This document shows positions 49,610 through 64,000 of a stretch of DNA of 64,000 nt, piece by piece (positions within the stretch are counted from its first letter, which is position 1; each line of letters opens with the position of its first letter). Under the pieces are notes generated by a model. That model was not told where the DNA came from and did no database searches. It saw only the letters and a program-made list of their open reading frames with translations. A program made the position numbers and the translations under genes. Source of the stretch: Bacteroidota bacterium. GTDB taxonomy: Bacteria; Bacteroidota; Bacteroidia; 2-12-FULL-35-15. The stretch is taken from NCBI GenBank assembly GCA_947447995.1, contig CANFLQ010000004.1, positions 2,268 through 66,267 on the forward strand, in the 5' to 3' direction.

Positions 49610-49630
49610 AAATGAGTGCAAAGCAATAAA

Positions 49631-50407
49631 ATGAAATTAAACTTAATTAATAACACCTATTTCAACGATTACAAAAAGCAACTCAATGTCAATATTGATA
49701 ATGCTTTTAAAACGCTATTGGATAAATCTCAAACTGCGGATGATTTTAAATTTTACCTTGCAAACTCTGCGGTACATTCATCCAACATTGAAGGGAATAC
49801 AGTAAATTTTGATACCTACTTAAAGGCAAGCGAACATAATTTACATCTGAAAACAAAAGAGATAAAAGAAATTGAAGCGCTAATAAAAGCATACCAATTT
49901 GCAAAAGAAAATGAGCTTACATTAAAGAATATATTAAAAGCACATGAAATTATTACAACCTCTATTTTAATAAAAAAGGAAAGAGGAAAGTTGAGAGATG
50001 TAAAAGTAGGAGTAAGAAGCGAAGGCAGATTGGTGTATTTAGCCATTGAACCTGAATTTGTAAAAAAAGAAGTAGAAAAATTATTTGAAGATATAGATGT
50101 GTTAATTAAAGCTAAATTAACCATTGAAGAAGTGTTTTATTATGCCGCATACATTCATTTGGTTTTTGTAAACATTCATCCTTTTGTGGATGGAAATGGA
50201 AGAGCAACACGTTTGATAGAAAAATGGTTTTTAGCAAAAAAGTTAGGGGATAAAGCTTGGTTTATTACTTCCGAAAAAAACTATTGGGATAACAGGTCAA
50301 CGTATTATAAAAACCTGCAAATAGGAGTAAACTATTATGAAATAAAGTATGAAAACAGCATTCCGTTTTTACTGATGTTACCCAATGCTTTAAAAAATAT
50401 TTATTAA
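49631..50407 (+). CDS. Fic family protein (AMPylase-type), class II-like with an N-terminal inhibitory motif
   Basis: Fic motif HPFVDGNGRATRL. Upstream SSNIEG matches the (S/T)xxxE(G/N) auto-inhibition motif. I chose the ATG at 49631 (MKLNLINN); the track ORF begins at a GTG at 49616. Confidence 0.88.
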   Translation: MKLNLINNTYFNDYKKQLNVNIDNAFKTLLDKSQTADDFKFYLANSAVHSSNIEGNTVNFDTYLKASEHNLHLKTKEIKEIEALIKAYQFAKENELTLKNILKAHEIITTSILIKKERGKLRDVKVGVRSEGRLVYLAIEPEFVKKEVEKLFEDIDVLIKAKLTIEEVFYYAAYIHLVFVNIHPFVDGNGRATRLIEKWFLAKKLGDKAWFITSEKNYWDNRSTYYKNLQIGVNYYEIKYENSIPFLLMLPNALKNIY

Positions 50408-50408
50408 A

Positions 50409-51347
50409 TTGAAACTGGATAAACAGTATAGCGTCTTTGTAAAGCAAATTAAGCTCGATATTCTCAATGCAAGAATAAAAGCTTCTCGCTCTGTTAATAA
50501 GGAATTGATAAAACTGTATTGGAATATTGGTCAAAAAATTGTTCAGAGCCAAAATAAATATGGTTGGGGAGAATCTGTAGTAGAAAATTTATCGAAAGAC
50601 ATAAGAAAAGAACTGGGAGATATAGCTGGTTTTTCTTCGAGAAATTTGTGGGAAATGCGCAAGGTTTATCTGGCTTACAAGGATTTTAAATTTCTGCAAC
50701 AGCTTGTTGCAGAAATATCATGGGGGCATCATTTACTAATTTTAAATAAGACAGAAAATATTGAGGAACGAGAGTTTTATATTCAATCTACAATTAAGCT
50801 TGGTTGGAGTTGTAATGTGTTACTAAATCAAATAAAAGCTAAGGCTTATAAGCGTCAATTATCACAAAACAAACAACACAATTTTAAAACGGCACTGCCA
50901 CTTCATCTTAATGAGCAAGCTGAAGAAACATTAAAAAGTAGTTATAATTTAGATTTTTTAGGAATAAAAGTTCCCATACTGGAAAGGCAATTGGAGAATA
51001 AATTAGTAGACCAGATTAAAAAATTTATTTTAGAACTAGGTTATGGTTTTTGTTTTATTTCAAATCAGCATAAGCTCTCGTTAAAGCATAAAGATTATTA
51101 TGTTGATTTATTATTTTACCATAGAAAGTTGAAATGTTTAGTTGCAATTGATTTAAAAGTAGGAGAATTTGAACCGGAATATGCTGGGAAAATGAATTTT
51201 TATTTGAATTTACTTGATGAAAAAGAAAAGGATGTAGATGAAAATCCATCGATAGGAATAATTCTATGTGCTGAAAAAAATCATATCGAAGTTGAATATG
51301 CTTTGAAGGGAATTACAGGAACAAATAAAAACACAATTAAAAATTAA
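50409..51347 (+). CDS. DUF1016/YhcG-family PD-(D/E)xK nuclease-domain protein
   Basis: NKELIKLYWNIGQKIV, GFS.RNLWEMRKVY, ISWGHH..IL, LDFLG, and C-terminal YVDLLFYH..L.C.VAIDLK.G.F.PE.AGKMNFYL are family hallmarks. TTG start 1 nt after the Fic stop. Confidence 0.85.
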   Translation: MKLDKQYSVFVKQIKLDILNARIKASRSVNKELIKLYWNIGQKIVQSQNKYGWGESVVENLSKDIRKELGDIAGFSSRNLWEMRKVYLAYKDFKFLQQLVAEISWGHHLLILNKTENIEEREFYIQSTIKLGWSCNVLLNQIKAKAYKRQLSQNKQHNFKTALPLHLNEQAEETLKSSYNLDFLGIKVPILERQLENKLVDQIKKFILELGYGFCFISNQHKLSLKHKDYYVDLLFYHRKLKCLVAIDLKVGEFEPEYAGKMNFYLNLLDEKEKDVDENPSIGIILCAEKNHIEVEYALKGITGTNKNTIKN

Positions 51348-51426: not shown

Positions 51427-54147
51427 ATGAGCGACAACGAAAACATAAACGAAGAAACGCATCAAGAAGGTGAAGAATTACACAACGTAATTCATGTTTC
51501 GGGAATGTACCAAAATTGGTTTTTAGATTACGCATCGTACGTAATTTTAGAACGTGCAGTGCCTTACGTGGAAGATGGCTTAAAACCTGTTCAACGTAGG
51601 ATATTGCATTCCATGGATGAATTGGATGACGGTCGTTACAACAAGGTAGCAAACATCATTGGGCATACCATGAAATATCACCCACATGGGGATATGAGTA
51701 TTGGCGATGCGCTGGTGGCACTCGGACAAAAAGATTTGTTAATTGATACTCAGGGAAACTGGGGAAACACATTAACTGGTGATAGGGCTGCTGCTCCGCG
51801 TTACATTGAAGCACGTTTATCAAAATTTGCTTTGGAGGTGGTGTTTAATCCGAAGACTACTGTTTGGTTGACCAGTTACGATGGCAGAAATAAAGAGCCC
51901 GAAACATTTCCTGTAAAGTTCCCCTTATTATTAGCTCAAGGTGTTGAAGGTATTGCGGTAGGTTTGGCGTGTAAAATGTTGCCTCATAATTTTAATGAAT
52001 TGTGTGATGCTTCGGTGGCTGTGTTGCGAGGTAAAAAAACAGATATATTACCTGATTTTGCAACAGCCGGCATGGCTGATTTTTCTAATTACAACGATGG
52101 TTTGCGTGGCGGGAAAATTCGTGTGCGTGCAAAAATTTCTCAGTTAGATAAAAAAACGTTGGTGATTAATGAAATTCCGTTTGGTACAACAACAGGCTCA
52201 TTGATCGATACCATTGTTTCGGCTAACGATAAAGGAAAAATAAAGATCCGTAAAGTAGAAGACAATACTGCCGAAAATGTGGAGATCGTTATTCATTTAG
52301 TTCCAGGTATTTCTCCCGATAAAACCATTGATGCATTATATGCGTTTACGGATTGTGAACTTTCTATTTCACCAAACGCTTGTATCATCGAAGATGATAA
52401 ACCGCGTTTTGTAGGTGTAAATGAAATGCTTAGAATTTCTACTCACAAAACATTAGATTTGCTGAGAAAAGAGCTGGAAATCGAAAAAGGGGAGTTGCAG
52501 GAATCATACATGTTTGCTTCGCTCGAAAAGCTTTTTATCAAAGATGAAATGTATATCGATTTTAAAAATTATTCGGATAAACAAAGTTTGTTTGGTTATT
52601 TGGATGGGCGTTTTACGAAATATAAAAAACAATTTATTCGTGAAATTACCAACGAGGATTTTGAGAAGCTGACACAAATTCCAATGATACGTATCACGCG
52701 TTTTGATTCTGCTAAAGCAGATGAAAAAATGAAAGCATTGGACGCACGTATCAATGAAATAAATCATCATTTAGCCAACCTTGTAGAATACGCAATAGAG
52801 TATTTCAAAAATTTGAAAAAGAAATACGGTGTTGGTCGCGAACGTAAAACAGAAATAAAATATTTTGAAACCATTGTTGCTACAAGTGTTGTAGTGGCAA
52901 ACGAAAAATTATATGTAAATCGTGAAGAAGGTTTTGCTGGTTTTGGTTTGAAAAAAGATGAATTCATTTCTGATTGTTCGGACATTGATGACATTATTGT
53001 TTTTCGTAAGGATGGAACATTTACAGTTTCCAAGGTGCAGGATAAAGCCTTTGTGGGTAAGGATTTAATACACATTGCTGTTTTTAAGAAAAACGATGAA
53101 CGTACTATTTACAACCTCATTTATCGCGATGGTAAAAATGGAAGTGTATTTATGAAACGTTTTCCGGTAACAGGTGTATCGCGCGATAAAGAATATAATT
53201 TAACAAAAGGTACAAAAGATTCGGAAGTACTTTATTTTACGGCTAATCCAAACGGCGAATCGGAAATTGTGGACATACAATTAAAACCATTACCCGGTTT
53301 ACGTAAGGTGCAGTGGGATTTTAATTTTGCTGATTTAGCAGTTAAAGGACGCAACTCCATGGGCAATGTGGTTACCAAATTTGTAGTTAAAAAAATTCTG
53401 TTAAAACAAAAAGGCTTGTCTACGCTTGGTGCATTGGATATGTGGTTTGATGACACCGTGCAACGTTTAAATACCGATAAACGTGGAATTTACCTTGGTA
53501 GTTTTGGTCCCGACGATAAAATAGTTACCATCATGCAAAGTGGAAATTATAAACTTACAGGATTCGATTTGGCAACCCACTTTGATGAAGATATGATCAT
53601 CATTGAAAAGTTTAATCTGGCTAAACCTGTTTCGGCGGTGTATTTGGATGGAGAAAGCAAAACGCATTTTGTGAAACGATTCCTTGTAGAACCGAGTGAT
53701 AAAAAAGTATTGTTTATCAGCGAAGCAGAAGGTTCCCGTTTAGAAATAGTTACTACAGATGCCATTCCGGTTCTTGAATTAAAATTTAGTAAAGTAAAAG
53801 ACAAAGAGATGCCAGATGAAATGGTTAATTTGGTTGATTTTATTGGCGTAAAAGGATTTAAAGCAAAAGGTAATAAATTATCGTATGCTAAAATAAAAGA
53901 CATAAAATTATTGCCTCCGGTAGAGGTGCAAATAGAAGAAGATGTGTTGGATGAGTTTGAAGAAAGTGGCTTGTCGCCATTGGAAGCACTCAAAAAATCA
54001 ACAACACCTGAAAAAACAAAAGAAAAACCACATATTTCAATAGATCATGAAATAAATGCAGAGCTGAAATTACCATCTGAAGAAAAGAAAAAGCCTAAAA
54101 AGCCAGAAGATGATAACGATGATGGGCAAATAACAATGGATTTATAG
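51427..54147 (+). CDS. parC: DNA topoisomerase IV subunit A
   Basis: LDYASYVILERA.P...DGLKPVQRRILHSM, HPHGD, and active-site region AA.RYIEARL. 906 aa with a beta-pinwheel C-terminal domain and an acidic/basic tail. Confidence 0.9.
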   Translation: MSDNENINEETHQEGEELHNVIHVSGMYQNWFLDYASYVILERAVPYVEDGLKPVQRRILHSMDELDDGRYNKVANIIGHTMKYHPHGDMSIGDALVALGQKDLLIDTQGNWGNTLTGDRAAAPRYIEARLSKFALEVVFNPKTTVWLTSYDGRNKEPETFPVKFPLLLAQGVEGIAVGLACKMLPHNFNELCDASVAVLRGKKTDILPDFATAGMADFSNYNDGLRGGKIRVRAKISQLDKKTLVINEIPFGTTTGSLIDTIVSANDKGKIKIRKVEDNTAENVEIVIHLVPGISPDKTIDALYAFTDCELSISPNACIIEDDKPRFVGVNEMLRISTHKTLDLLRKELEIEKGELQESYMFASLEKLFIKDEMYIDFKNYSDKQSLFGYLDGRFTKYKKQFIREITNEDFEKLTQIPMIRITRFDSAKADEKMKALDARINEINHHLANLVEYAIEYFKNLKKKYGVGRERKTEIKYFETIVATSVVVANEKLYVNREEGFAGFGLKKDEFISDCSDIDDIIVFRKDGTFTVSKVQDKAFVGKDLIHIAVFKKNDERTIYNLIYRDGKNGSVFMKRFPVTGVSRDKEYNLTKGTKDSEVLYFTANPNGESEIVDIQLKPLPGLRKVQWDFNFADLAVKGRNSMGNVVTKFVVKKILLKQKGLSTLGALDMWFDDTVQRLNTDKRGIYLGSFGPDDKIVTIMQSGNYKLTGFDLATHFDEDMIIIEKFNLAKPVSAVYLDGESKTHFVKRFLVEPSDKKVLFISEAEGSRLEIVTTDAIPVLELKFSKVKDKEMPDEMVNLVDFIGVKGFKAKGNKLSYAKIKDIKLLPPVEVQIEEDVLDEFEESGLSPLEALKKSTTPEKTKEKPHISIDHEINAELKLPSEEKKKPKKPEDDNDDGQITMDL

Positions 54148-54675
54148 GGTATTAACACCTAGTTTCACATAATATGTTTTCAATTTTGTATTGTCGCAAG
54201 AAGGTTTGATATTATTATTCCATTCTTTTTTAAACTCTTTTTTAGGAAGGAATTGTTTACCTATAAATTTAAAAACAATATTTCCATTTGGTTGTATTGT
54301 ACTATTATTTATAAATTGATAATTTGTATTTTCATAAGTAAAACAATGATTAGCGGAAATTAATACAGTATTTAATTGAAATGTAGCATTCAGATAACGT
54401 ACCGAAAATCCTGCATCTGTAACCGCTTTTGCTATTGCATCGAAGGAAACAGATTGACCTTTTTTAAAAATAATTTTACCGTTGGTGTTAGTTAAATTCA
54501 TTTCTATATTTTCAATAAAATTTAATTTACGAATACTCATTTCTACCGAACGTGTGCATGCAGAACAGGTAAGTCCGTTTACCCCAAAATCAACTGACTT
54601 AAATTGAGCAAAACAGAAGCAAGGCATTAATGCCAAAATGGTTATGATAAAGATTTTTGTTGCAATTGTATACAT
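54142..54675 (-). CDS. secreted heavy-metal-associated (HMA) domain protein with a C-terminal extension
   Basis: Signal peptide. GVNGLTCSACTRSVE is the GMTCxxC-type HMA metal-binding loop. A ~100-aa extra domain follows. The 3' end overlaps parC by 6 nt (convergent). Confidence 0.8.
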   Translation of the reverse strand: MYTIATKIFIITILALMPCFCFAQFKSVDFGVNGLTCSACTRSVEMSIRKLNFIENIEMNLTNTNGKIIFKKGQSVSFDAIAKAVTDAGFSVRYLNATFQLNTVLISANHCFTYENTNYQFINNSTIQPNGNIVFKFIGKQFLPKKEFKKEWNNNIKPSCDNTKLKTYYVKLGVNTL

Positions 54676-54834
54676 TACTGCAAAAGTAAGGATTAATCCT
54701 TCGACTAAAAACAGACAAGAGGTCTCATATTTTGGATAAAAATATTGAAGTTACCCAACCATTTTTTGTTTTAATACGTTTTTTGGTTAGTAGAAAGTAT
54801 TTATTTATTCGAAAAAAAAGCTTAAAATTGCGCC

Positions 54835-55218
54835 ATGATTAATTTTTTAAAACAAATGTTATGTGTTATCTTGGTTGCAGTTGTATTGCTGCAAAGCCTT
54901 GGTAAAACTATTGTTTTGGCAAATTATGAAATTAATAAAGAGTATATTTCCAAGGTGCTTTGTGTAAACAAAAGCAAACCTAAAATGCACTGTAATGGTA
55001 AATGCCATTTAAAAAAGGAGCTAAAAAAAGCTGAAAAAAGAGAACAATCTTCAAGTGCAACAATAGAAAAGATGGAAATTCAATTGTTTTCCACATCTTC
55101 GGATATTTTTCAATTATCTACTACCTTTATTTTAGTAAATAGCAATATGTTATTTAATTATTCCAATCACTTATCGGATAAACATCTCACTTCTATTTTT
55201 CACCCGCCTCAGGTTTAG
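54835..55218 (+). CDS. small membrane protein with a C-x9-HCNGKCH motif (copy 1)
   Basis: N-terminal TM helix, then ANYEINKEYISKVLCVNKSKPKMHCNGKCHLKKELKKAEKRE, ending ..IFHPPQV. Paralog of the ORF at 59337 with the same motif and the same (H/R)PP ending. Confidence 0.6.
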   Translation: MINFLKQMLCVILVAVVLLQSLGKTIVLANYEINKEYISKVLCVNKSKPKMHCNGKCHLKKELKKAEKREQSSSATIEKMEIQLFSTSSDIFQLSTTFILVNSNMLFNYSNHLSDKHLTSIFHPPQV

Positions 55219-55347
55219 TTAGTCTGTTTTTTTATTTACAATAGAATGGCTTTTACTGTTCTATTACTCTATTTTTATTGCATTGTTATGTTGTAACCAA
55301 TTTTGGTTAATTACAATAATACTGCATACATTTAAAAATTTATTTTA

Positions 55348-56415
55348 ATGAAATTACCTGTTTATATTTTGGTAATGCTGTTGTTTTTTATAACACCAGC
55401 AGTATTGTCGCAAACATGCGATTCGGTTAAGGAGTGTAATTGTGCGCTTAACGATAGAAGTCCTGCGGGTATTATGTTAGCGCACGAACATTCTAAAGGT
55501 GTTTGGAAATTTTCGTATAGGTATATGAACATGGCGATGAATGGCAATTTATTGGGTACACAAAAAGTGGATGATAATTTTGTTTTTAATAATTATATCA
55601 TGTCTCCCCAAAATATGCGTATGGATATGCACATGCTTATGGCAATGTATGGTATAACCAATCGGTTGTCGGTTATGGCAATGTTTAATTACAATGTGTT
55701 GGATATGAATATGAGTATGCTGCCAACAACGTTGCATGTTCACGGAGCAGGAACTACCAGTGCCAAAAGTACGCATGTAATGAATACAAAAACATCCGGG
55801 TTGGGTGATATTCAATTGTATGCAGTATATTCTTTATTGAATAAAAGCGACCAACTTTTATTGTTGAACGGTGGTGTGAATATCCCTACAGGAAACATTT
55901 ATAATAAAGGCAATAGCAGTGATTTAATGTATCCTTCACAACAATTGCCTTATATGATGCAAATGGGGTCAGGTACTGTTGATTTTATGCCTGGGTTAAC
56001 CTACTTAATGCTAGTAAATAAGTTTTCATGGAGTACTCAGGTAACGTCGGTAATACGTCCGTTTATGAATACACGTAACTATCGTTTAGGTAATGAAGGA
56101 ACATTGAATATTTGGGCTGCCTACCAATGGTTTAATTGGTTGAGTACTTCACTAAGGTTGGAAGGAATAGCTAAAGGGGAAATTGTAACTAAAGATGCTG
56201 CGCTTTCAACCGTGATGGAGCCATCTGCAAATGCTAAAAATTATGGTGGTAAAAATATCAATAGTTATATAGGGGTTAATTTTTATTTGAATAAAGGATT
56301 TTTAGAAAATAGTAAACTTTCCATGGAATATGGGATGCCATTGTATCAAAATATTAATGGTATTCAATTGGCACAAAAATCAACTATATATGCCGGTTGG
56401 ATGATATCATTTTAA
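55348..56415 (+). CDS. outer-membrane transporter-family beta-barrel (MetA/phenol-degradation-like) with Met/His-rich loops
   Basis: Signal peptide. SGLGDIQLY motif typical of the PF13557-type barrel. Runs such as YMNMAMNG, MRMDMHMLMAMYG and LDMNMSMLPTTLHVHG. Ends ..YAGWMISF. Confidence 0.7.
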   Translation: MKLPVYILVMLLFFITPAVLSQTCDSVKECNCALNDRSPAGIMLAHEHSKGVWKFSYRYMNMAMNGNLLGTQKVDDNFVFNNYIMSPQNMRMDMHMLMAMYGITNRLSVMAMFNYNVLDMNMSMLPTTLHVHGAGTTSAKSTHVMNTKTSGLGDIQLYAVYSLLNKSDQLLLLNGGVNIPTGNIYNKGNSSDLMYPSQQLPYMMQMGSGTVDFMPGLTYLMLVNKFSWSTQVTSVIRPFMNTRNYRLGNEGTLNIWAAYQWFNWLSTSLRLEGIAKGEIVTKDAALSTVMEPSANAKNYGGKNINSYIGVNFYLNKGFLENSKLSMEYGMPLYQNINGIQLAQKSTIYAGWMISF

Positions 56416-56465
56416 TAAAAAAATATCACTTTAAAATAGAATATAAACAATTAAAAAAAACACAA

Positions 56466-57263
56466 ATGAAAGCAATAAAAAAAATACAAATGGCATTTAT
56501 AGGCCTTGTTACACTGGCTGCAATAACATTAAATGCATGTAAAAAAGATGTAGATTTAACTGCAAAACCTGCTACTATAAAGGTAATTGAAAAAGGAGGA
56601 TTGGCATTTCACATTCATAGCTTGGTAGATTCGGTAGAGATAGAAGCGTATGATACCATTTATCAATTGAGTGGTGGTAGAAAATTTTCAGTGACCATGG
56701 CGCAACTCTACCTTTCAAATATTCAGTTGATAAAATTAGATGGATCCACCGTAGATGTATCAGGTGTTATTAAACTAAAACAACAACAAGTGGAAGAGTG
56801 TGAACTAGGAAGTGTGCCAGTAGGAAATTATAAGTCGATTAAATTTAATGTGGGTTTAAGTGCTGCTGTTAACGCCACAGTACCTGCAAATACAGACACA
56901 ACACTTAATCATCCTGATATGTGGTTTAACACTGCAATGGCTCAACCAGATGGTTTTGTGTTTGTAAATTTTGAAGGAACAGTAGATACTACCGCCGCAG
57001 CAAATGGAAGTGTATTGGTACCATTTTCATACAAAATTGGAACAAATGCTAATTTACAAACGGTTACTTTACCCGATCAAAACTTTACAATACTAAAGGG
57101 GCAAACTCAGGAAATACATATAGCAATTGATTATGCCAAGTTGTTTGATGGTGTTCAATTAAATAACAATGGAAATTTAATAATGAATACAGTTTCTGCT
57201 AATGCTACTGCATTGGGAACAATGATTGCAAATAATATTCAAAAAATAGTTAGTTATATGTAA
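56466..57263 (+). CDS. MbnP-like lipoprotein, divergent copy A
   Basis: Lipobox ..TLNAC. (A)QLYLSNIQLIKLDGS and LGSVPVGNYKSIKFNVGL align with copy B. The W-x-W-N-S-G-Y motif is replaced by MWFNTAMAQPDGFVFVNFEG. Start chosen at ATG 56466. Confidence 0.55.
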   Translation: MKAIKKIQMAFIGLVTLAAITLNACKKDVDLTAKPATIKVIEKGGLAFHIHSLVDSVEIEAYDTIYQLSGGRKFSVTMAQLYLSNIQLIKLDGSTVDVSGVIKLKQQQVEECELGSVPVGNYKSIKFNVGLSAAVNATVPANTDTTLNHPDMWFNTAMAQPDGFVFVNFEGTVDTTAAANGSVLVPFSYKIGTNANLQTVTLPDQNFTILKGQTQEIHIAIDYAKLFDGVQLNNNGNLIMNTVSANATALGTMIANNIQKIVSYM

Positions 57264-57375
57264 TGATAACAACTTTATGTAACAAAAGTTGCAGAATTTT
57301 ATTTTTTTGAAATACACCTTTAAAGAATTAAAATTAATTATTAAGAATTAAAGTAAAACTATAAAAACAATATAC

Positions 57376-58158
57376 ATGAAAACACTAATTAAAAAATTAG
57401 CATTATCCTCGGCATTAATTGCTGTTGTGGTTACAGGTTGTAAAAAAGATCCAAAAGAAGAATCCCCTAAACCTGCCAGTCAGGAACAAGACCTTGCTCT
57501 GGTATTTAAAAATGTAGCAGGAACAAGTGATGTAGATTTTATATCTGCCTATACAACAAATTCCGCACAAAAATATACGTTGTCAACTGTGCGCTTTTAT
57601 ATGTCAGGCATAAGCCTTGTAAAAAGTGATGGTTCGGAATATCCTTTAACTGGGCAGTATTTGTTAGTAGATCCTTCAGTATCTCATTTTCATTTAGGAA
57701 AAGTGCCTGTTGGAAATTATAAAGGATTGAAGTTTACAGTTGGTATTGACTCTGTTACCAATCACAAAGATCCAAGTACTTATGCTACAACAAATCCACT
57801 TGCTAATCAAACACCATCCATGCATTGGAGTTGGAATTCGGGTTATGTATTTATGATGATTGAAGGAAGCTGTGATACCACAGCGGCAGGTACGGATGCT
57901 CTTGCTTCAGGTCAATATCATCATTCAATGTTTTTTCATTTAGGTATGGATGGGTTGACTAGAAAAGTAGAGTTGAATAATTCTGCATTTTCAATAGTTA
58001 GCGGAACCGATAAATATGTGTATATAAAAACAGATATGAATCAGCTTTTAAATGGTGTTGATTTGAAAACAGAAAATCAAAGCCATACTATGGGCACAAT
58101 GATGTTGGCAACAAAAGTAGCAAACAATATACCCAATGCATTTAGTATAGTTCCTTAA
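57376..58158 (+). CDS. MbnP-family lipoprotein, copy B
   Basis: Lipobox VVTGC. VRFYMSGISLVKSDGSEYPL, LGKVPVGNYKGLKFTVGIDS..NH.DP and MHWSWNSGYVFMMIEG match my recollection of the MbnP (TIGR04052) consensus. It lies directly upstream of a di-haem enzyme gene. Confidence 0.65.
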   Translation: MKTLIKKLALSSALIAVVVTGCKKDPKEESPKPASQEQDLALVFKNVAGTSDVDFISAYTTNSAQKYTLSTVRFYMSGISLVKSDGSEYPLTGQYLLVDPSVSHFHLGKVPVGNYKGLKFTVGIDSVTNHKDPSTYATTNPLANQTPSMHWSWNSGYVFMMIEGSCDTTAAGTDALASGQYHHSMFFHLGMDGLTRKVELNNSAFSIVSGTDKYVYIKTDMNQLLNGVDLKTENQSHTMGTMMLATKVANNIPNAFSIVP

Positions 58159-58175
58159 AAAATAGCATAAGGTTA

Positions 58176-58212
58176 GCGCCAAACATTAATTGTTTTGTTT
58201 AATGTTTGGCGC
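58176..58212 (+). promoter_or_regulatory. perfect 14-bp stem, 9-nt loop hairpin between MbnP-like B and the di-haem enzyme gene
   Basis: GCGCCAAACATTAA ttgttttgt TTAATGTTTGGCGC. No U-tract follows. 18 nt after the stop at 58158 and 34 nt before ATG 58246. Confidence 0.5.
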
Positions 58213-58245
58213 AACATTTACGTTAACTATTTTAAAAAATGCCCC

Positions 58246-59292
58246 ATGAATACATACAGTAAATTTAAAAATATACATTATTTACGTTTTGTTGGACGGC
58301 GTCAAATAGTATTGTTATTTATACCAGTACTATTTGTTTTTTCATGTAAAAAAGAACCTGTTCCGTATGAATATTCTGAGGGCAATAAAGTAGTTTTGTA
58401 TACTGTACCTAAAGGTTTTCCATACCCTACAGTACCCGTAGATAATTTACCAACAAAAAACAGAATAGTATTAGGTAAGCGATTGTTTTTTGATCCTGTA
58501 CTTTCTCGTGATAGCACAATATCCTGTGGTTCCTGCCATTTGGAAGATAAATATTTTACAGATAATTTAAAAGTAAGTGAAGGTATTGGTAAGCAATTAG
58601 GTGTTAGAAATGCTCCTACCATTATTAATGTTGCATACCATCCTTACTTTTTTTGGGATGGAGGTAATCCAACATTGGAACAACAAGTAGTTGGGCCAAT
58701 TGAAAATCCGTTGGAAATGGGTTTTAATATTAATGAAGCTGTTGCGCGGTTAAAAAAACATTCCGATTATGTTAAACTCTTTCAAGAGGCTTACGGTAAG
58801 GAAATTAGTCCTTTTACGTTAACACGCGCCATTGCTTGTTATGAACGAACAATAATAAGTGGTAATTCCAGGTACGATGATTATATTCAGAAAGGAGATA
58901 CATCTGCATTAACAACATCTGAAAAAAATGGAATGAATATATTTTTTGGAGAAAAAGGCGAATGTTTTCATTGTCACGGAGGATTTAATTTTACCGATAA
59001 TAGTTTTGCAAATAATGGCTTGTATACCACCTATGCCGATTCGGGACGAGCTAGAATAACCCTTAAAGCATCCGATGTTGGAAAATTTAAAACGCCATCA
59101 TTACGCAATATTGATAACACGGCGCCGTATATGCACGATGGTAGTTTTGCTACATTAGTAGAAGTTGTTGAGCACTATAACAGTGGAGGTAAAAAACATC
59201 CAAATAAAAGTCCAATTTTATTACCATTAAAATTAACGGTTACACAAAAACAAGATCTGGTAAATTTTTTAAAATCCTTAACGGATAAATAA
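58246..59292 (+). CDS. di-haem cytochrome c peroxidase-family enzyme (MbnH/MauG/CCP-like), copy 1
   Basis: Two CxxCH motifs (CGSCH, CFHCH). PSLRNI..TAPYMHDGSFATL.EVVEHYNSGG. Lipoprotein-like N-terminus (..VFSCKKE). Start chosen at ATG 58246; the track ORF begins at a TTG at 58195. Confidence 0.88.
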   Translation: MNTYSKFKNIHYLRFVGRRQIVLLFIPVLFVFSCKKEPVPYEYSEGNKVVLYTVPKGFPYPTVPVDNLPTKNRIVLGKRLFFDPVLSRDSTISCGSCHLEDKYFTDNLKVSEGIGKQLGVRNAPTIINVAYHPYFFWDGGNPTLEQQVVGPIENPLEMGFNINEAVARLKKHSDYVKLFQEAYGKEISPFTLTRAIACYERTIISGNSRYDDYIQKGDTSALTTSEKNGMNIFFGEKGECFHCHGGFNFTDNSFANNGLYTTYADSGRARITLKASDVGKFKTPSLRNIDNTAPYMHDGSFATLVEVVEHYNSGGKKHPNKSPILLPLKLTVTQKQDLVNFLKSLTDK

Positions 59293-59336
59293 ATTAAAAA
59301 AAATCAATCATCGTAAAAAATACGTGAAGCAATAAA

Positions 59337-59756
59337 GTGTCAGATAGAAAATTTTATACTACTATTTTTAAAGTAAATAAAAAAACATTTGCTGTAACAA
59401 TGCTTGTGGCTATTTTGTTTCAAGCGTTTTGTTCATTTATCATGTATGCAAATTATGAAATTAATAAAGAAAAGATTACTCAAAGATTTTGTGAAAATAA
59501 AAACAAACCTCAACTACATTGCAATGGTAAATGCCATTTGATAAAACAACTTAATAAAGCAGAAAAAGAAGAAAATACACCGTTAAATAATCTAAAAGAA
59601 AAAATAGAATTTTCTCCTTATGTTATTATGGATGATAGTGTATTCGCTTTTTATAAATATAGCACAAACATAAAACATAGTTTTTCTTACGTGTTTAATT
59701 TTTATTTAATTCATCCCAATACTATTTTCCGTCCCCCTCTTCGTTCGGTTTGCTAA
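59337..59756 (+). CDS. small membrane protein with a C-x9-HCNGKCH motif (copy 2)
   Basis: TM helix, then ANYEINKEKITQRFCENKNKPQLHCNGKCHLIKQLNKAEKEE, ending ..IFRPPLRSVC. The start is uncertain: GTG 59337 or ATG 59400. Confidence 0.6.
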   Translation: MSDRKFYTTIFKVNKKTFAVTMLVAILFQAFCSFIMYANYEINKEKITQRFCENKNKPQLHCNGKCHLIKQLNKAEKEENTPLNNLKEKIEFSPYVIMDDSVFAFYKYSTNIKHSFSYVFNFYLIHPNTIFRPPLRSVC

Positions 59757-59780
59757 CCACTTACTAGTATATTCTTAAAA

Positions 59781-59799
59781 CATACGGATAATCCGTATG
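59781..59799. promoter_or_regulatory. perfect 19-bp palindrome CATACGGATAATCCGTATG
   Basis: Located between small protein copy 2 (stop 59756) and MbnP-like C (ATG 59859). Either an operator-like site or a 7-bp stem, 5-nt loop RNA hairpin. Confidence 0.4.
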
Positions 59800-59858
59800 G
59801 TATGCGCTATGCGATAAATTTGCTATGGACTAATTATAAACATATTAAATTATTAAAA

Positions 59859-60725
59859 ATGAAATTCAAACTTATTTTATTAAGTACGGCATTGCTATTT
59901 ACTGCAATTGGCTGTAAAAAAGAAACAATTGAAAAAATTGTTTATGTTAACAATACACCTGTGGCAACACCTGCCGAAACAGGTACGGTGGAATTAATAG
60001 TTGAACCCACATTAGATGGCGTACCATATACCATGGGTACAGAATTTACAACACCTGCAGGTGAAAAATTAACGGTAACTGATCTTAGGTTTTTACTAAG
60101 TAGTATTGGTTTAGCTAAGGAAAATTCTCAGGAAAATAAATCCATTACTTATCCTGGTGATTTAGCGCAAAGCAATGTTTATTTGGTAGATTTAAAAACA
60201 CCCAATTTTGACAATGGTCACGGTTTGAATAGTTGTAAAATTAGATTTAAAGGGGTTGTTGGGGAGTATGCCGACATTCGTTTTAAAATGGACGTACCCA
60301 ATGAATATAATTTAGCTGATGCAACAACAAATCCATATCCATTAGATGCAGCCACTGGAATGTATTGGTCATGGAATTCTGGGTACAAATTTTTAGTAGT
60401 GAATGGAACAAGTGCTAGCTTAACAGGTTTTAATGGTGTTCATTTATCTATTGGGGCGGACAAAAGTTGTGTGTTTAATTTTAGAAGTTTAATACTTGCA
60501 CCAAGCTTACCTAAAATTATAGTTGAAAAAGATAAAGTAACACAAATTCGTTTTACCTATAATTTGATGCAAATGTTGAGAAATACCAACGGAACTAAGT
60601 ATTCTTTATTACCAAATCCCGATGGTTCAAGCAACTCTCAAGTACATGGTGGTGCAAATGCAAATGTATTACGCGGTAACATTCAGCAAGCTTTGGAATT
60701 AAATAAGTTTTTTAACCCTCAATAA
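59859..60725 (+). CDS. MbnP-family lipoprotein, copy C
   Basis: Lipobox TAIGC. DLRFLLSSIGLAKE.., GMYWSWNSGYKFLVVNG. Start chosen at ATG 59859 (MKFKLILLSTALLF). Confidence 0.6.
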   Translation: MKFKLILLSTALLFTAIGCKKETIEKIVYVNNTPVATPAETGTVELIVEPTLDGVPYTMGTEFTTPAGEKLTVTDLRFLLSSIGLAKENSQENKSITYPGDLAQSNVYLVDLKTPNFDNGHGLNSCKIRFKGVVGEYADIRFKMDVPNEYNLADATTNPYPLDAATGMYWSWNSGYKFLVVNGTSASLTGFNGVHLSIGADKSCVFNFRSLILAPSLPKIIVEKDKVTQIRFTYNLMQMLRNTNGTKYSLLPNPDGSSNSQVHGGANANVLRGNIQQALELNKFFNPQ

Positions 60726-60733
60726 TAATTAGT

Positions 60734-61642
60734 ATGAAAAATAAAAAATATGTTTTAGCACTACTTATTGTAGTTGCTATTTTTAGTATGAATTTTGGAT
60801 TAAAATTTATGAGCGCAGGTTTTGGCGATAGTACTGGAGCTCCAATGAAAACAACTGTTAAAAGTAGTTATGTAGGATGTAATAATTCTGGTTGTCATAC
60901 AAGCAAGTTGCTAAACGATGCTACACAAGGTTTTGTAGATGTAACCAGTGATATTCCTTTAACGGGTTGGGTTCCTAATACAACCTATAATATTACAGTA
61001 ACTGCTACTGCAATAGGAATGTATGCGTATGGTTTTCAGTTTACCACCTGGGGTAAAACGGACAGCGTAACTAAAGGCACATTAACGGCTATGGATGCGG
61101 ATGTGCAAATTAAAAAGTCGATTTTAAAAAGCAGTAAGGGTGCTACATTGGATAGCAACTACTACGCAACTCATTTGAAAACTTCTGTAACACATGGTTC
61201 AACCCATAATATGTGGATGTTTCAATGGAAAGCACCCGCTGTTAAAAATCAGGAAGTACGTTTTTACTTAACCGCTGTTTGTGCAAATGGCAATGGATCA
61301 GCTTTTGGAGATTATGTATATCGTATAAATAAAAATGCGGATTCATCGTCAATTAAAAGTTTAAATATTAACTCAGTAGGTATTGCTGAATTGATGATGA
61401 CTGACAATGTTTTCATTTATCCAACCATTACAAAAAATGATATAAACATAAGTATTCCTAATAAATTAGGAGAGGCAACGGTTTGTGTGATGGATATTAC
61501 TGGTAAAATGGTACTTAACACAGTGTTGATGTTAAACGAAAACTTACATATTATTAATTTAAGTGAATTTGAAACTGGAACGTATGTTATTACTATTCAA
61601 GGTTCAAACTTTAATTTTTCTAAAAAAGTAGTTAAAATATAA
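60734..61642 (+). CDS. T9SS type A-sorted secreted protein with an N-terminal GAP...C-x4-CH domain
   Basis: Signal or anchor. DSTGAPMKTT..YVGCNNSGCH; GFQFT; WMFQWKAP; FYLTAVCANGNGS..GDYVY. C-terminal IYPTITKNDINISIP...GTYVITI sorting domain. Confidence 0.75.
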   Translation: MKNKKYVLALLIVVAIFSMNFGLKFMSAGFGDSTGAPMKTTVKSSYVGCNNSGCHTSKLLNDATQGFVDVTSDIPLTGWVPNTTYNITVTATAIGMYAYGFQFTTWGKTDSVTKGTLTAMDADVQIKKSILKSSKGATLDSNYYATHLKTSVTHGSTHNMWMFQWKAPAVKNQEVRFYLTAVCANGNGSAFGDYVYRINKNADSSSIKSLNINSVGIAELMMTDNVFIYPTITKNDINISIPNKLGEATVCVMDITGKMVLNTVLMLNENLHIINLSEFETGTYVITIQGSNFNFSKKVVKI

Positions 61643-61687
61643 AATGAATTGAGGCTGTAGTAAAAGTTGTTTTAATTGTTAAAAAAT

Positions 61688-61720
61688 AGACCTGACAGGT
61701 TTTCAAAACCTGTTAGGTCT
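61688..61720 (+). terminator. 14-bp stem hairpin (one G-U pair) after the T9SS protein gene
   Basis: AGACCTGACAGGTT ttcaa AACCTGTTAGGTCT, 46 nt after the stop at 61642 and 28 nt before ATG 61749. No clear U-tract. The sequence type (cctgacaggtt) is a common Bacteroidota intergenic palindrome. Confidence 0.45.
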
Positions 61721-61748
61721 TAATAAAGTCCCTCTTTTTAATATATCA

Positions 61749-62786
61749 ATGAACGGGTTAAAATATATTTTCTTTTTTTTATTTGGTTTGCATTCTTGTA
61801 AAAAGGATGCAGTAAACCAACCTAAGCCAGAATTGCCTATTAGCAATGATGGTAGCTATACTTACAATACACCAAGTTATTTTCCTCCATTAAACTATCC
61901 AAGCAATAATAAACCAACAAAACGAAAATTTGATTTGGGTAAAAAATTGTTTTATGATAAAATATTATCAAAAGATTTTTCCATTTCTTGTTCATCGTGT
62001 CATCATCAAAATTTAGCTTTTTCGGACAGTGTACAATTTAGTACAGGTTCTGGCAATCAATTAGCGGCACGTAATGAGCCAACATTAACAAATGTTGGTT
62101 ATAACAGTACTTATTTTTGGGATGGCGGTGTTCCCAGTTTAGAGCTACAAGCATTGGCACCGTTGGATAATCATTTAGAATTTAATTTACCTTACGATAG
62201 TATGCTTATTCGTTTAAACAGCAATGCTATATATAAACAATTATTTAATGAAGCATTTGGTACAGATGCAAATTTGAGTGGTTATACCAAAGCGTTGGCA
62301 TGTTATGAAAGGTCTTTTATTTCGGGCAATTCCAAGTATGATAATTTTTATTATAAAAATAATACAAGTGCTTTTAATGCCAGTGAATTAAATGGATATA
62401 AATTATTTACTGATTCTGAAATTGCTTGCAATTCCTGCCATTCAGGGTTTAATTTTACAAATGGCTCATTTCAAAATATAGGTTTATATATAAATTATCC
62501 CGATCCAGGGCGTTATAAAGTTACTGGATATATACAGGATTTAGCTTGTTTTAAAGTACCAACACTGCGTAATGTTGCCTTAACAGCACCGTATATGCAC
62601 GATGGCAGTATTGCAACATTGGAACAAGTTATTGATCATTTTAATAGTGGAGGGCAAGCGCATACCAATAAATCACCACTGGTAAAACCATTAAACTTAA
62701 CTGCCCAAGAAAAAACGGATTTAGTTAATTTTTTAAAAACACTTACCGATACTGAATTTATTGAGCAACAAAATTTGAAACCATAG
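61749..62786 (+). CDS. di-haem cytochrome c peroxidase-family enzyme (MbnH/MauG/CCP-like), copy 2
   Basis: CSSCH and CNSCH haem motifs. PTLRNVALTAPYMHDGSIATLEQVIDHFNSGG. Lipobox-like GLHSC. Confidence 0.88.
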   Translation: MNGLKYIFFFLFGLHSCKKDAVNQPKPELPISNDGSYTYNTPSYFPPLNYPSNNKPTKRKFDLGKKLFYDKILSKDFSISCSSCHHQNLAFSDSVQFSTGSGNQLAARNEPTLTNVGYNSTYFWDGGVPSLELQALAPLDNHLEFNLPYDSMLIRLNSNAIYKQLFNEAFGTDANLSGYTKALACYERSFISGNSKYDNFYYKNNTSAFNASELNGYKLFTDSEIACNSCHSGFNFTNGSFQNIGLYINYPDPGRYKVTGYIQDLACFKVPTLRNVALTAPYMHDGSIATLEQVIDHFNSGGQAHTNKSPLVKPLNLTAQEKTDLVNFLKTLTDTEFIEQQNLKP

Positions 62787-62787
62787 C

Positions 62788-64000
62788 TTAATTTTTGTTA
62801 AATTGATTTACTCCATTTTTTAACCATTCGGCATATTCAGCAATGCCCGACTGATAAAACCTAGGTGGTGATACTGGCTTTTCATTGCCATCTAACAAAA
62901 TATAAAAAGGCAATGCGTTGGTTTTGTAGATACTCTCTTCCATGTATTTGAATTTGTCACCAAGTGTTGTTATTTCATAATTATCACCATTCCAAAACAC
63001 GTTTTCAACGTCTTTTTTATTTAGTGTCAATTTATCATCCACATAAAGTGATACCAATACCACTTCATTATTTAATATGTTTTTTACGGTAGCATCGGGC
63101 CAAATAAAATCTTCTGTTTTTCGGCAATTGGCGCAGGTGTAACCTGTAAAATCAACCAATAATGGTTTGTTCACTTTTTTAGCATAAGCCAATGCGTGTG
63201 CATAATTGTTTGTGAAATGAACTATTCCATTTTTATTGGTTTGAATGTAGGGAGCAAACTCCGGATCGATAAACGATTGACTGTTATTTTTTTCGGCAGC
63301 ACCAAAGCCGTGTGGCGATTCAGAATATTCGAGCGGAGGCAATACTCCGCTCAATAATTTTAAAGGCGCACCCCATAAGCCCGGAATTAAATAAATAGTA
63401 AAAGAAAGAGAAATTAACGTAACAAATATTCGGGCAACCGAAAGGTGCTTTACTTCGCTATCGTGCGATGTTTTAAAGCCTCCTAACAAATAAATACTCA
63501 TTAATGTAAAAACACCAATCCAAAGGGTAATGAATACTTCACGCGTAAGTATGCCTAAATGATAGGCTAAATCAATGTTAGACGCAAATTTTAATGCCAA
63601 TGCCAGTTCTAAAAAACCAAGTGTTACTTTAACAGCATTGAGCCAACCCCCACTTTTGGGAATGGATTTTAACAAGGATGGAAAAAATGCAAAAAAGCCA
63701 AATGGCAATGCCAAACCTGATGAAAAACCAAACATTGCCCAAAATGCACCGCTTGTATTTTGCGATGTAGATGCTGCCACCAAAGCATTACCAACCATTG
63801 GTCCCGTGCAGGAAAACGATACTACTACCAATGTAAGCGCCATAAAAAAGATGCCCATAAAACCACCTTTATCGCTTTGCGCATCAATTTTATTTACAAA
63901 CTTTGATGGCAATACAATTTCAAATGCTCCTAAAAACGATGCGGCAAAAAGTAGTAATAAAATAAAAACCACACCATTAAAACCTACACTGCTCGAAAAA
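62788..64000 (-). CDS. DsbD-family thiol:disulfide reductase (TM core plus C-terminal thioredoxin domain), N-terminus beyond the window
   Basis: Multiple TM helices with the CcdA/DsbD-like motif (FSCTGP), then a thioredoxin fold with the CxxC motif FTGYTCANCRK. The reading frame is still open at 64000. The stop is 1 nt from the convergent di-haem gene. Confidence 0.85.
   Translation of the reverse strand, partial: FSSSVGFNGVVFILLLLFAASFLGAFEIVLPSKFVNKIDAQSDKGGFMGIFFMALTLVVVSFSCTGPMVGNALVAASTSQNTSGAFWAMFGFSSGLALPFGFFAFFPSLLKSIPKSGGWLNAVKVTLGFLELALALKFASNIDLAYHLGILTREVFITLWIGVFTLMSIYLLGGFKTSHDSEVKHLSVARIFVTLISLSFTIYLIPGLWGAPLKLLSGVLPPLEYSESPHGFGAAEKNNSQSFIDPEFAPYIQTNKNGIVHFTNNYAHALAYAKKVNKPLLVDFTGYTCANCRKTEDFIWPDATVKNILNNEVVLVSLYVDDKLTLNKKDVENVFWNGDNYEITTLGDKFKYMEESIYKTNALPFYILLDGNEKPVSPPRFYQSGIAEYAEWLKNGVNQFNKN

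Follow-up and report, generated by a model that had tools for sequence, protein, structure and literature searches.

CruR (Bp2923; DUF2946/PF11162) from Bordetella pertussis is a copper-responsive upstream open reading frame (uORF; Roy et al., mBio 2022, PMC9426467). It is built from an export signal, a CXXC motif, a spacer of 45 ± 2 residues and an RAPP sequence three residues from its end. In the absence of copper, ribosomes arrest at RAPP, and transcription of the operon goes ahead; once the CXXC motif senses copper, the stall is relieved and Rho terminates in a region where C exceeds G (PMC9426467). The peptide is poorly structured and appears to be short-lived. Its homologues were found in Proteobacteria and, in small numbers, in Planctomycetes, Firmicutes and Deinococcus, and their operons contain TonB receptors, PepSY_TM, Sco, PCuAC, YcnI, CopC and MbnPH (PMC9426467). 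Arrest at RAPP was confirmed in vitro in 2025, and surveys of RAPP/RGPP uORFs report none that is copper-related in Bacteroidota (PMC12992588). CutF from Rhodobacter capsulatus, another member of DUF2946, has the opposite polarity and acts on a detoxifying oxidase (bioRxiv 10.1101/2025.02.05.636593). In MbnP (7L6G), Trp174 is converted to a kynurenine that serves as a copper ligand (PMC11951088). Here, we describe a locus at 54142-62786 of a 64,000-nucleotide stretch of contig CANFLQ010000004.1 from a Bacteroidota bacterium (GCA_947447995.1; this whole stretch is called the window below), in which two runs of genes, each headed by a small open reading frame (ORF) laid out like CruR, contain MbnP-like lipoproteins and MbnH-type di-haem enzymes.

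We propose, with a probability of roughly 0.55, that the locus consists of two copper-acquisition units, each under the control of a translated leader ORF. Module 1 runs leader, Met/His-rich barrel, MbnP without a WxW motif, MbnP with WxW and MbnH; module 2 runs leader, MbnP with WxW, a type IX secretion system (T9SS) protein and MbnH. The original prediction, made on the same DNA, had described nine genes on the plus strand flanked by a divergent HMA gene and a convergent DsbD-type gene, and all eleven were recovered in place from the ORF list. It had also seen one order repeated in the two modules; both are indeed headed by a leader and ended by an MbnH gene, but their gene orders differ. 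Paralogues in the two modules are 22-47% identical and, judged by this divergence, they are old and the duplication is not recent. No further copies of the locus genes were found elsewhere in the window. The locus is from a freshwater Bacteroidota metagenome-assembled genome (MAG; GCA_947454875.1, GCA_947444205.1) and is present in four assemblies or sequencing runs. Synteny in related genomes had been put forward as a test of the system, and each module is syntenic elsewhere: module 1 in loci L001, L007, L024 and L028, and module 2 in L081 and L082.

The argument rests mainly on the two leaders. Leader 1 (54835-55218, + strand; 127 amino acids) is a candidate arrest peptide with a signal-anchor, a Cys/His motif and a C-terminal IFHPP. 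Leader 2 (59337-59756, + strand; 139 amino acids, with a GTG start) begins 44 nt past the stop codon of the first MbnH gene. The two are about 40% identical, both carry HCNGKCH, and neither has a Pfam or NCBIfam match. In leader 1, the Cys/His motif (C43...H58) lies at 54961-55008 and IFHPP at 55195-55209, two codons before the stop; in leader 2, the corresponding motif lies at 59490-59537 and IFRPP at 59724-59738, five codons before the stop. The distance from the last Cys to the first Pro is 66 residues in both.

Relatives were gathered by scanning one genome from each species with a sequence pattern, which gave 343 matches, and 80 loci were kept. The record titles of these loci all name a Bacteroidota organism save one MAG labelled Bifidobacteriaceae, which is probably mis-binned. 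The family amounts to 2,555 clusters at 90% identity in a profile search and to 8,051 clusters at 50% identity in an exhaustive HMMER search, nearly all of them 110-150 amino acids long. Where the sources give its members a name at all, it is hypothetical, uncharacterized or secreted protein. One example, called hypothetical by RefSeq, is a leader of Fulvitalea (WP_338395401.1) on a plasmid that was the single match of a plasmid search for OprC-type receptors.

The anatomy of the family is uniform. All 87 members from the fetched loci have a hydrophobic N-terminal segment, the pattern C-x9-C-x-G-x-C and a C-terminal PP, and the same features are found in 256 of 264 additional database sequences from two profile searches. 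The commonest form of the sensor motif is HCNG[KR]C[HY]. From the last Cys to the first Pro there are 61-71 residues (median 66, n = 87; 62-70 in the additional sequences), and the tail behind PP is 1-8 amino acids long (n = 87). The C-terminal logo reads [SA][IV]FHPP, with PP in the context [IV]F[HRQK]PP, and the linker of about 66 amino acids is constant in length and has no sequence consensus. The hydrophobic segment spans about 20 amino acids, and its flanks carry net charges of +1.2 on the N-terminal and -0.7 on the C-terminal side; the leaders are thus predicted to be oriented N-in, C-out, with the Cys/His cluster in the periplasm. C exceeds G in the 3' coding part of the leader (linker and PP) in 83 of 87 members (median ratio 1.39), compared with only 29 of 87 leader 5' parts and 29 of 83 downstream genes. 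A variant at L081:8441-8824 has SCCEAKC in place of HCNGKCH and keeps IFHPP, so that the sensor motif can vary where the C-terminal motif is fixed.

The genes around the leaders in the 80 loci were called crudely and then clustered. Among the genes examined, the leader is the first in a run of copper-linked genes, and the spacer from the leader to the next gene has a median length of 103 nt. A TonB receptor lies downstream of the leader in 28 loci. The downstream arrangements include a TonB receptor followed by a BNR propeller (15-17 loci); MbnP, MbnH and a barrel (8 loci); a 144-amino-acid protein, SCO1 and PepSY_TM (5 loci); a YtkA/FixH-like protein and then a receptor with TIGR01778 (TonB-copper) as its best model (at least 4 loci); a TonB receptor followed by PepSY_TM (at least 3 loci); and a Met-rich barrel followed by MbnP (several loci). 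The most common TonB receptor partner resembles siderophore receptors most, though it scores under their cut-offs. CopA, Cus and multicopper oxidase were not seen among the families to which partners in the 80 loci could be assigned. The small Cys/His proteins had originally been regarded as partners of the proteins encoded beside them; this view has to be revised, because their family heads operons of very different content and has the anatomy of an arrest peptide.

Two leader-headed units are chained on one strand at L007:10001-19444 and at L073:10010-16866, so that tandem leader-gated units, as in the window, are a recurring design. The order in L007 is leader, TonB receptor, a 478-amino-acid membrane protein, leader, Met-rich barrel, MbnP, CX4CH lipoprotein and HMA protein. 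Paired leaders exist in methanotrophs too, since several Methylocystis loci (within L088-L156, the proteobacterial MbnH loci) have a pair of DUF2946-type ORFs, one on each strand, beside MbnH, for example at L103:5263-5670 (+) and L103:4628-4972 (-). The BNR-repeat β-propeller, of about 408 amino acids, stands behind the TonB receptor in L010-L065 (mostly Chitinophaga; for example L061:12828-14051), and a BNR protein is also encoded just past DsbD in the source contig of the window (L083:14116-15132).

Downstream of the leaders, three lipoproteins and two di-haem enzymes are of MbnP/MbnH type at the level of Pfam profiles. The lipoproteins are encoded on the + strand at 56466-57263, 57376-58158 and 59859-60725. 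They score 93, 136 and 96 bits, respectively, against PF20243 (gathering cut-off 27 bits) and 34, 74 and 75 bits against TIGR04052 (cut-off 140). The original designation of these proteins as MbnP-like is thus sustained by the three PF20243 scores, though all are below the TIGR04052 cut-off. The pattern M-x-W-x-W is present in the 57376 protein (HWSW, within SMHWSW; FFHLG is also present) and in the 59859 protein (YWSW, within GMYWSW), and it is kept in most of the family. The 56466 protein lacks WxW (MWFNTAMAQPDG; MWFN...) and also the conserved His. In the related loci examined, this WxW-less subtype, from which the second Trp and the conserved His are gone, goes with a Met-rich barrel (7-9% Met), and Met-poor barrels follow the MbnP-MbnH pairs of the WxW type. 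The MbnP family profile matches 7L6G (E = 7.6e-5) with WxW aligned, a comparison limited to the WxW position and the conserved His-x-Gly.

The two di-haem enzymes, MbnH1 (58246-59292, + strand) and MbnH2 (61749-62786, + strand), are 47% identical and have two CXXCH motifs each. They score 187 and 177 bits against PF03150 (CCP_MauG), which is above its Pfam cut-off, and their best NCBIfam model is TIGR04039 (304 and 292 bits; cut-off 363). The best match of MbnH1 in the PDB is 6E1C (E = 1.7e-58), followed at a distance by bacterial cytochrome c peroxidases (about 1e-44), MauG (1e-21) and 6NX0/6V59 (1e-14). The MbnH type assigned originally to both enzymes is therefore upheld, TIGR04039 being the best model and 6E1C the best structure. 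An identification of 6E1C as BthA was rejected, since it is 83-91% identical to sequences in Methylosinus and related methanotroph loci. The genes at 57376 and 58246 are adjacent, and the 57376 protein is the predicted substrate of MbnH1. Those at 59859 and 61749 are one gene apart, an order also found in L081 and L082, where an orthologue of the 59859 gene occupies the same position.

A lipobox followed by the N-terminus C-K-K-[D/E] is found on all five proteins (56466, 57376, 58246, 59859 and 61749). Because C-K-K-[D/E] resembles the surface-export signal of Bacteroidota lipoproteins, part of the system may be on the cell surface. Strong, near-perfect hairpins lie in the spacers immediately before both MbnH genes (58172-58214 and 61688-61720, with -22.5 and -22.2 kcal/mol, respectively, and z about -6.4). 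Their role might be to reduce the amount of enzyme made in proportion to its MbnP substrate, or else to confer stability on the upstream mRNA.

The barrel of module 1 (55348-56415, + strand) contains 8.5% Met and six M.M.M ladders. Its AlphaFold2 model has 12 strands, with a predicted local distance difference test score (pLDDT) of 88.4 and a predicted template modelling score (pTM) of 0.83, which agrees with the Met/His-rich outer-membrane barrel originally proposed. The best Foldseek match is the COG4313 channel 4RL8 (E = 3e-17, template modelling (TM) score 0.75), with FapF next. Many homologues carry PF13557, and the window barrel itself has no Pfam or NCBIfam match. A subset of its Met and His positions does not vary across 60 homologues. 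From the predicted strands and the residue periodicity, 14 Met residues share one face of strands 1-3 (M51/53/55, six in M81-91, and M101/103/111/113/115), and the opposite face carries aromatic and aliphatic residues of the lipid type. We infer from these two faces of the model that the lumen is Met-lined and suited to Cu(I), which makes the barrel a candidate Cu(I) channel.

The T9SS protein of module 2 (60734-61642, + strand) is a choice-of-anchor V protein (NF041895, 69.2 bits, cut-off 42) with a T9SS sorting domain (TIGR04183, 37.1 bits, cut-off 23; PF18962, 37.1 bits, cut-off 27). These scores bear out the original description of a T9SS-sorted CX4CH protein, which is likely to be exposed at the cell surface. 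Its motif is GCNNSGCH (CX4CH); C49 and H55 of this motif are shared by all 15 homologues, and CX4CH is kept in distant relatives. Choice-of-anchor V proteins recur in the leader-headed operons L027 and L029, and L081 and L082 have the same gene order as the window. The structural model, a β-sandwich based on 15 homologues, is weak (pLDDT 64, below 50 in the CX4CH region), and its Foldseek matches, generic immunoglobulin-like folds and a faint reeler-domain match (TM score about 0.55), were not relied on. CX4CH lipoproteins of 129-135 amino acids (C-x-x-[STAP]-G-C-H) also occur in leader-headed barrel operons (L001:12601-12987, L003:13752-14156, L007:18441-18839 and L028:12352-12735), and a 497-amino-acid protein at L001:13021-14514 (-) has the same motif. 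The lipoprotein at L001:12601 shows weak similarity to PSCyt1, a Planctomycete cytochrome c. The CX4CH motif might attach haem in a variant manner or bind a metal.

The HMA protein (54142-54675, - strand), divergent from leader 1, has a signal peptide, the CxxC motif GLTCSAC, a PF00403 domain (32.2 bits, gathering cut-off 24.8) and, in addition, a C-terminal domain of roughly 85 amino acids. Its best NCBIfam matches are of CopZ types, and it lies below the CopZ and MerP equivalog cut-offs. Homologues occur in the barrel-type loci L001 and L007. It is a probable periplasmic copper chaperone.

At the right edge, the convergent DsbD-type reductase gene (62788-63972, - strand) encodes DsbD_TM and thioredoxin domains and runs past the end of the window; in the source contig it is complete, with 680 amino acids. 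It had originally been placed alongside the modules. We rejected it as a component, as no homologue lies within 10 kb of a leader in the 80 related loci, and we treat it as a mere neighbour because it is not syntenic and is convergent with a gap of 1 bp. To the left of the locus stands the gene for topoisomerase IV subunit A (51427-54147); the same gene lies directly upstream of the leader in L001, so that the topoisomerase-leader junction is syntenic. The two genes before it (49616-51347), the second of which carries DUF1016_N and YhcG_C, are unrelated to the finding. MbnA, MbnB, MbnC and a TonB receptor, whose absence had been reported, were likewise not seen among the ORFs annotated at 50-64 kb; the first 50 kb was not scanned for them.

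From the gene content, the protein families, the motifs and spacing of the leaders, their operon position and partners, and the predicted fold of the barrel, we infer the following sequence of events. The leader would be made with its N-terminal signal-anchor and the C-x9-C-N-G-K-C-H cluster. When copper is scarce, the ribosome would stall at the Pro-Pro of [IV]F[HR]PP, with the Cys/His cluster just out of the exit tunnel. While stalled, the ribosome would sit on the 3' part of the leader mRNA, which is rich in C and poor in G, and exclude Rho, or another terminator, so that the downstream genes are transcribed. Copper bound to the nascent Cys/His cluster would relieve the stall; translation would then be completed and transcription would stop in the spacer of about 100-130 nt. 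With the downstream genes expressed, Cu(I) may enter via the Met-lined 12-strand outer-membrane barrel, and the WxW-less MbnP-type lipoprotein may receive it from there. Each MbnP of the WxW type would be oxidised by its own MbnH, which would turn Trp into kynurenine and so create a copper site. The T9SS-displayed CX4CH protein may capture or reduce copper on the cell surface, and the secreted HMA protein would hand it on within the periplasm. In its most far-reaching form, the proposal is that Bacteroidota may have a very large family of metal-sensing arrest leaders of their own, with a new arrest motif ([IV]FHPP) and a new sensor motif (C-x9-C-x-G-x-C-H). Here, these leaders would gate a new, TonB-independent copper import system made up of a surface T9SS CX4CH protein (haem or Cys/His) for the capture or reduction of Cu(II), a Met-lined 12-strand barrel for the passage of Cu(I) and MbnP lipoproteins as its recipients, two of them kynurenine-armed by MbnH. 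We advance this only tentatively.

Several observations weigh against the proposal of leader-controlled copper acquisition. FHPP is a candidate arrest motif only, and EF-P could resolve Pro-Pro pauses. The excess of C over G may merely follow the amino-acid make-up of the linker. PF11162 matches none of 64 leaders at E ≤ 10; in a positive control of 38 small ORFs with HCxxC...R[AG]PP from the fetched proteobacterial and methanotroph MbnH loci, it matches 13 of 21 proteobacterial leaders at E ≤ 0.01. In an hhalign comparison, leader and DUF2946 align with a probability of 28.7% over only 48 N-terminal columns, in which lie the transmembrane "LLQ" and the first Cys. Neither the MbnP-like nor the MbnH-like proteins reach the NCBIfam equivalog cut-offs, and the mature MbnP-like proteins of the window have only 1, 1 and 2 Cys, where the name given to 7L6G by its depositors ('metallo-mystery pair system four-Cys motif protein') specifies a four-Cys motif. 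Some partners have no known copper link, such as the BNR propellers behind TonB receptors.

The spacers behind the leaders add little. The spacer between leader 1 and the barrel (55219-55347, + strand; 129 nt) has a 10-bp hairpin (55240-55265) with a U-rich run behind it, and that behind leader 2 (59757-59858) has a hairpin at 59781-59799. Hairpins in leader spacers average -12.3 kcal/mol, compared with -7.4 kcal/mol in shuffled sequence. However, same-strand control spacers from the same loci reach -12.6 kcal/mol (p = 0.24), and the leader-spacer hairpins are neither stronger nor more frequent than those of the controls; as the control spacers are equally structured, the hairpins are not specific evidence, and their role as attenuators was rejected. 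Whole-spacer folds of both window spacers are also not significant (z about -1), and the spacer folds showed no convincing stem over the start codon that follows. A scan for sigma-70 promoters and terminators gave counts at chance level, and a scan for the Bacteroidota TAnnTTTG motif was uninformative.

The small Cys/His proteins might instead be stable, membrane-anchored periplasmic metal-binding subunits that work with the transporter and with MbnP/MbnH. The conserved signal-anchor, the predicted periplasm-facing Cys/His cluster and the constant position beside transport genes would suit such a role, and the C-terminal FHPP could serve docking. A structural subunit should track one partner, though, and the partner of this family changes among TonB receptor, barrel, MbnP, SCO1 and YtkA-like protein. 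Its 66-residue linker is kept in length and not in sequence, as in the spacers of arrest peptides and unlike folded domains; it is encoded first in the copper-linked run with about 100 nt of spacer behind it; and CruR, laid out in the same way, has little structure and is apparently short-lived. We therefore consider a subunit role improbable. Somewhat less probable still is a polarity like that of CutF-CutO, in which copper would induce stalling and turn the genes on, and the locus would protect against copper excess by sequestration or export. CutF does turn on a copper-detoxifying oxidase as periplasmic copper rises, Met-rich and HMA proteins are common in resistance systems too, and the Cys/His cluster of the leaders is predicted to be periplasmic. 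The partners found across the family, by contrast, are of acquisition or cuproenzyme-assembly types (TonB receptors, PepSY_TM, SCO1 and YtkA-like proteins); the detoxification genes CopA, Cus and multicopper oxidase do not appear among those identified in the 80 loci; and no stem-loop masking a start codon stands out.

A further possibility, the least probable of those considered here, is that the pairs are not copper proteins, the di-haem enzymes being peroxidases or maturases of other cofactors, or that the metal is iron or zinc. It would account for the scores under the TIGR04052 and TIGR04039 equivalog cut-offs, for the missing four-Cys motif and the WxW-less MbnP copy, for the resemblance of the commonest TonB partner to siderophore receptors (below cut-offs) and for the otherwise unexplained BNR partners. 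Yet two of the three copies, like most of the family, retain M-x-W-x-W, which lines up with WxW in 7L6G, and methanotroph MbnH is much nearer to MbnH1 than peroxidases or MauG are. The neighbours also include copper-specific types (HMA/CopZ-like, SCO1, YtkA-like and TIGR01778-like receptor), and an invariant Met ladder in the barrel fits Cu(I), not Fe or Zn. The copper role that had been suggested with a question mark is accordingly the best reading, given the CxxC motif of the HMA protein, the Met-lined barrel and the copper-linked partners in other genomes. Two copper-acquisition units under leader control thus remain our preferred explanation.

Copper-responsive arrest-peptide uORFs are a recent discovery, with CruR described in 2022 and in vitro arrest in 2025. 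If the explanation of leader control is true, the present family would fill the Bacteroidota gap in the RAPP/RGPP survey of copper uORFs (PMC12992588) with a different motif. It would provide thousands of natural variants of one design of arrest and sensor, which could reveal how a nascent chain reads metal. The locus also points to how Bacteroidota may supply copper to haem-copper oxidases and N2O reductase, enzyme targets that we suggest ourselves. In some genomes, the copper route would perhaps lead through a small Met-lined barrel and MbnP-type lipoproteins instead of a TonB receptor. MbnP/MbnH biology would be extended well past methanotrophs, and the leader could be used as a simple genomic marker for copper-regulated operons in Bacteroidota.

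The system had originally been presented as one without precedent. This no longer holds, because the layout of a leader with MbnPH, TonB receptor or Sco has been described for Proteobacteria, and the barrel falls in the COG4313/PF13557 fold family. CruR-type leader control and MbnPH are the known part; the leader family, its candidate arrest motif, the Met-lined barrel and the T9SS CX4CH protein are the new part. Like CruR, the leaders are small, stand first in copper-linked operons and have an N-terminal export signal, a Cys-based metal motif, a fixed-length spacer and X-X-P-P near the stop; a long spacer follows the leader, a C > G region lies inside it, and TonB receptor, PepSY_TM, Sco and MbnPH are shared partners. 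Nevertheless, there are clear differences. The metal motif is C-x9-C-x-G-x-C(H) rather than CXXC, the end is [IV]F[HR]PP rather than RAPP, and the spacing is about 66 residues rather than 45. The named members of the family are in Bacteroidota, and its partners also include COG4313-type barrels and T9SS proteins. By these comparisons, the family is CruR-like in anatomy and partners, yet not a demonstrable member of DUF2946; it may be either a remote homologue of CruR/DUF2946 or a convergent design. The leaders also resemble CutF in being exported and in having a Cys motif and a C-terminal proline motif, and CutF senses periplasmic copper co-translationally. CutF, however, turns on a detoxifying multicopper oxidase by melting a stem-loop that masks the ribosome-binding site, whereas the downstream genes of the window look like uptake genes.

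For the proteins under leader control, the nearest described pair is MbnP/MbnH of Methylosinus trichosporium OB3b (7L6G, 6E1C), in which a Trp-rich protein with M-x-W-x-W is likewise paired with a MauG-like di-haem enzyme. The window differs in that both partners are lipoproteins (lipobox, then CKK[DE]), the four-Cys motif is missing and methanobactin genes and MbnT were not seen at 50-64 kb. In addition, one MbnP copy pairs with a barrel and not with MbnH, and the T9SS protein lies inside the module 2 pair. MopE/CorA with CorB of methanotrophs offers another parallel, as a surface-associated, copper-repressed copper scavenger with a kynurenine site and a di-haem, peroxidase-like neighbour; the window lipoproteins are unrelated to MopE/CorA in fold and sequence, and surface exposure is suggested for them by their CKK[DE] N-termini only. 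The barrel shares its 12 strands and N-terminal segment with the COG4313/PF13557 channels (Pput2725, 4RL8) and with FapF, which secretes amyloid subunits, and differs from both in its invariant Met ladder and His residues, which suggest a path for Cu(I). The TonB-dependent copper importers CrtA/BfrG and OprC act at the step proposed for the barrel, the passage of copper through the outer membrane; importers of this type stand under CruR-type leaders in Proteobacteria and under the present leader family in other Bacteroidota loci, whereas the window has a small barrel without plug or TonB-box domains.

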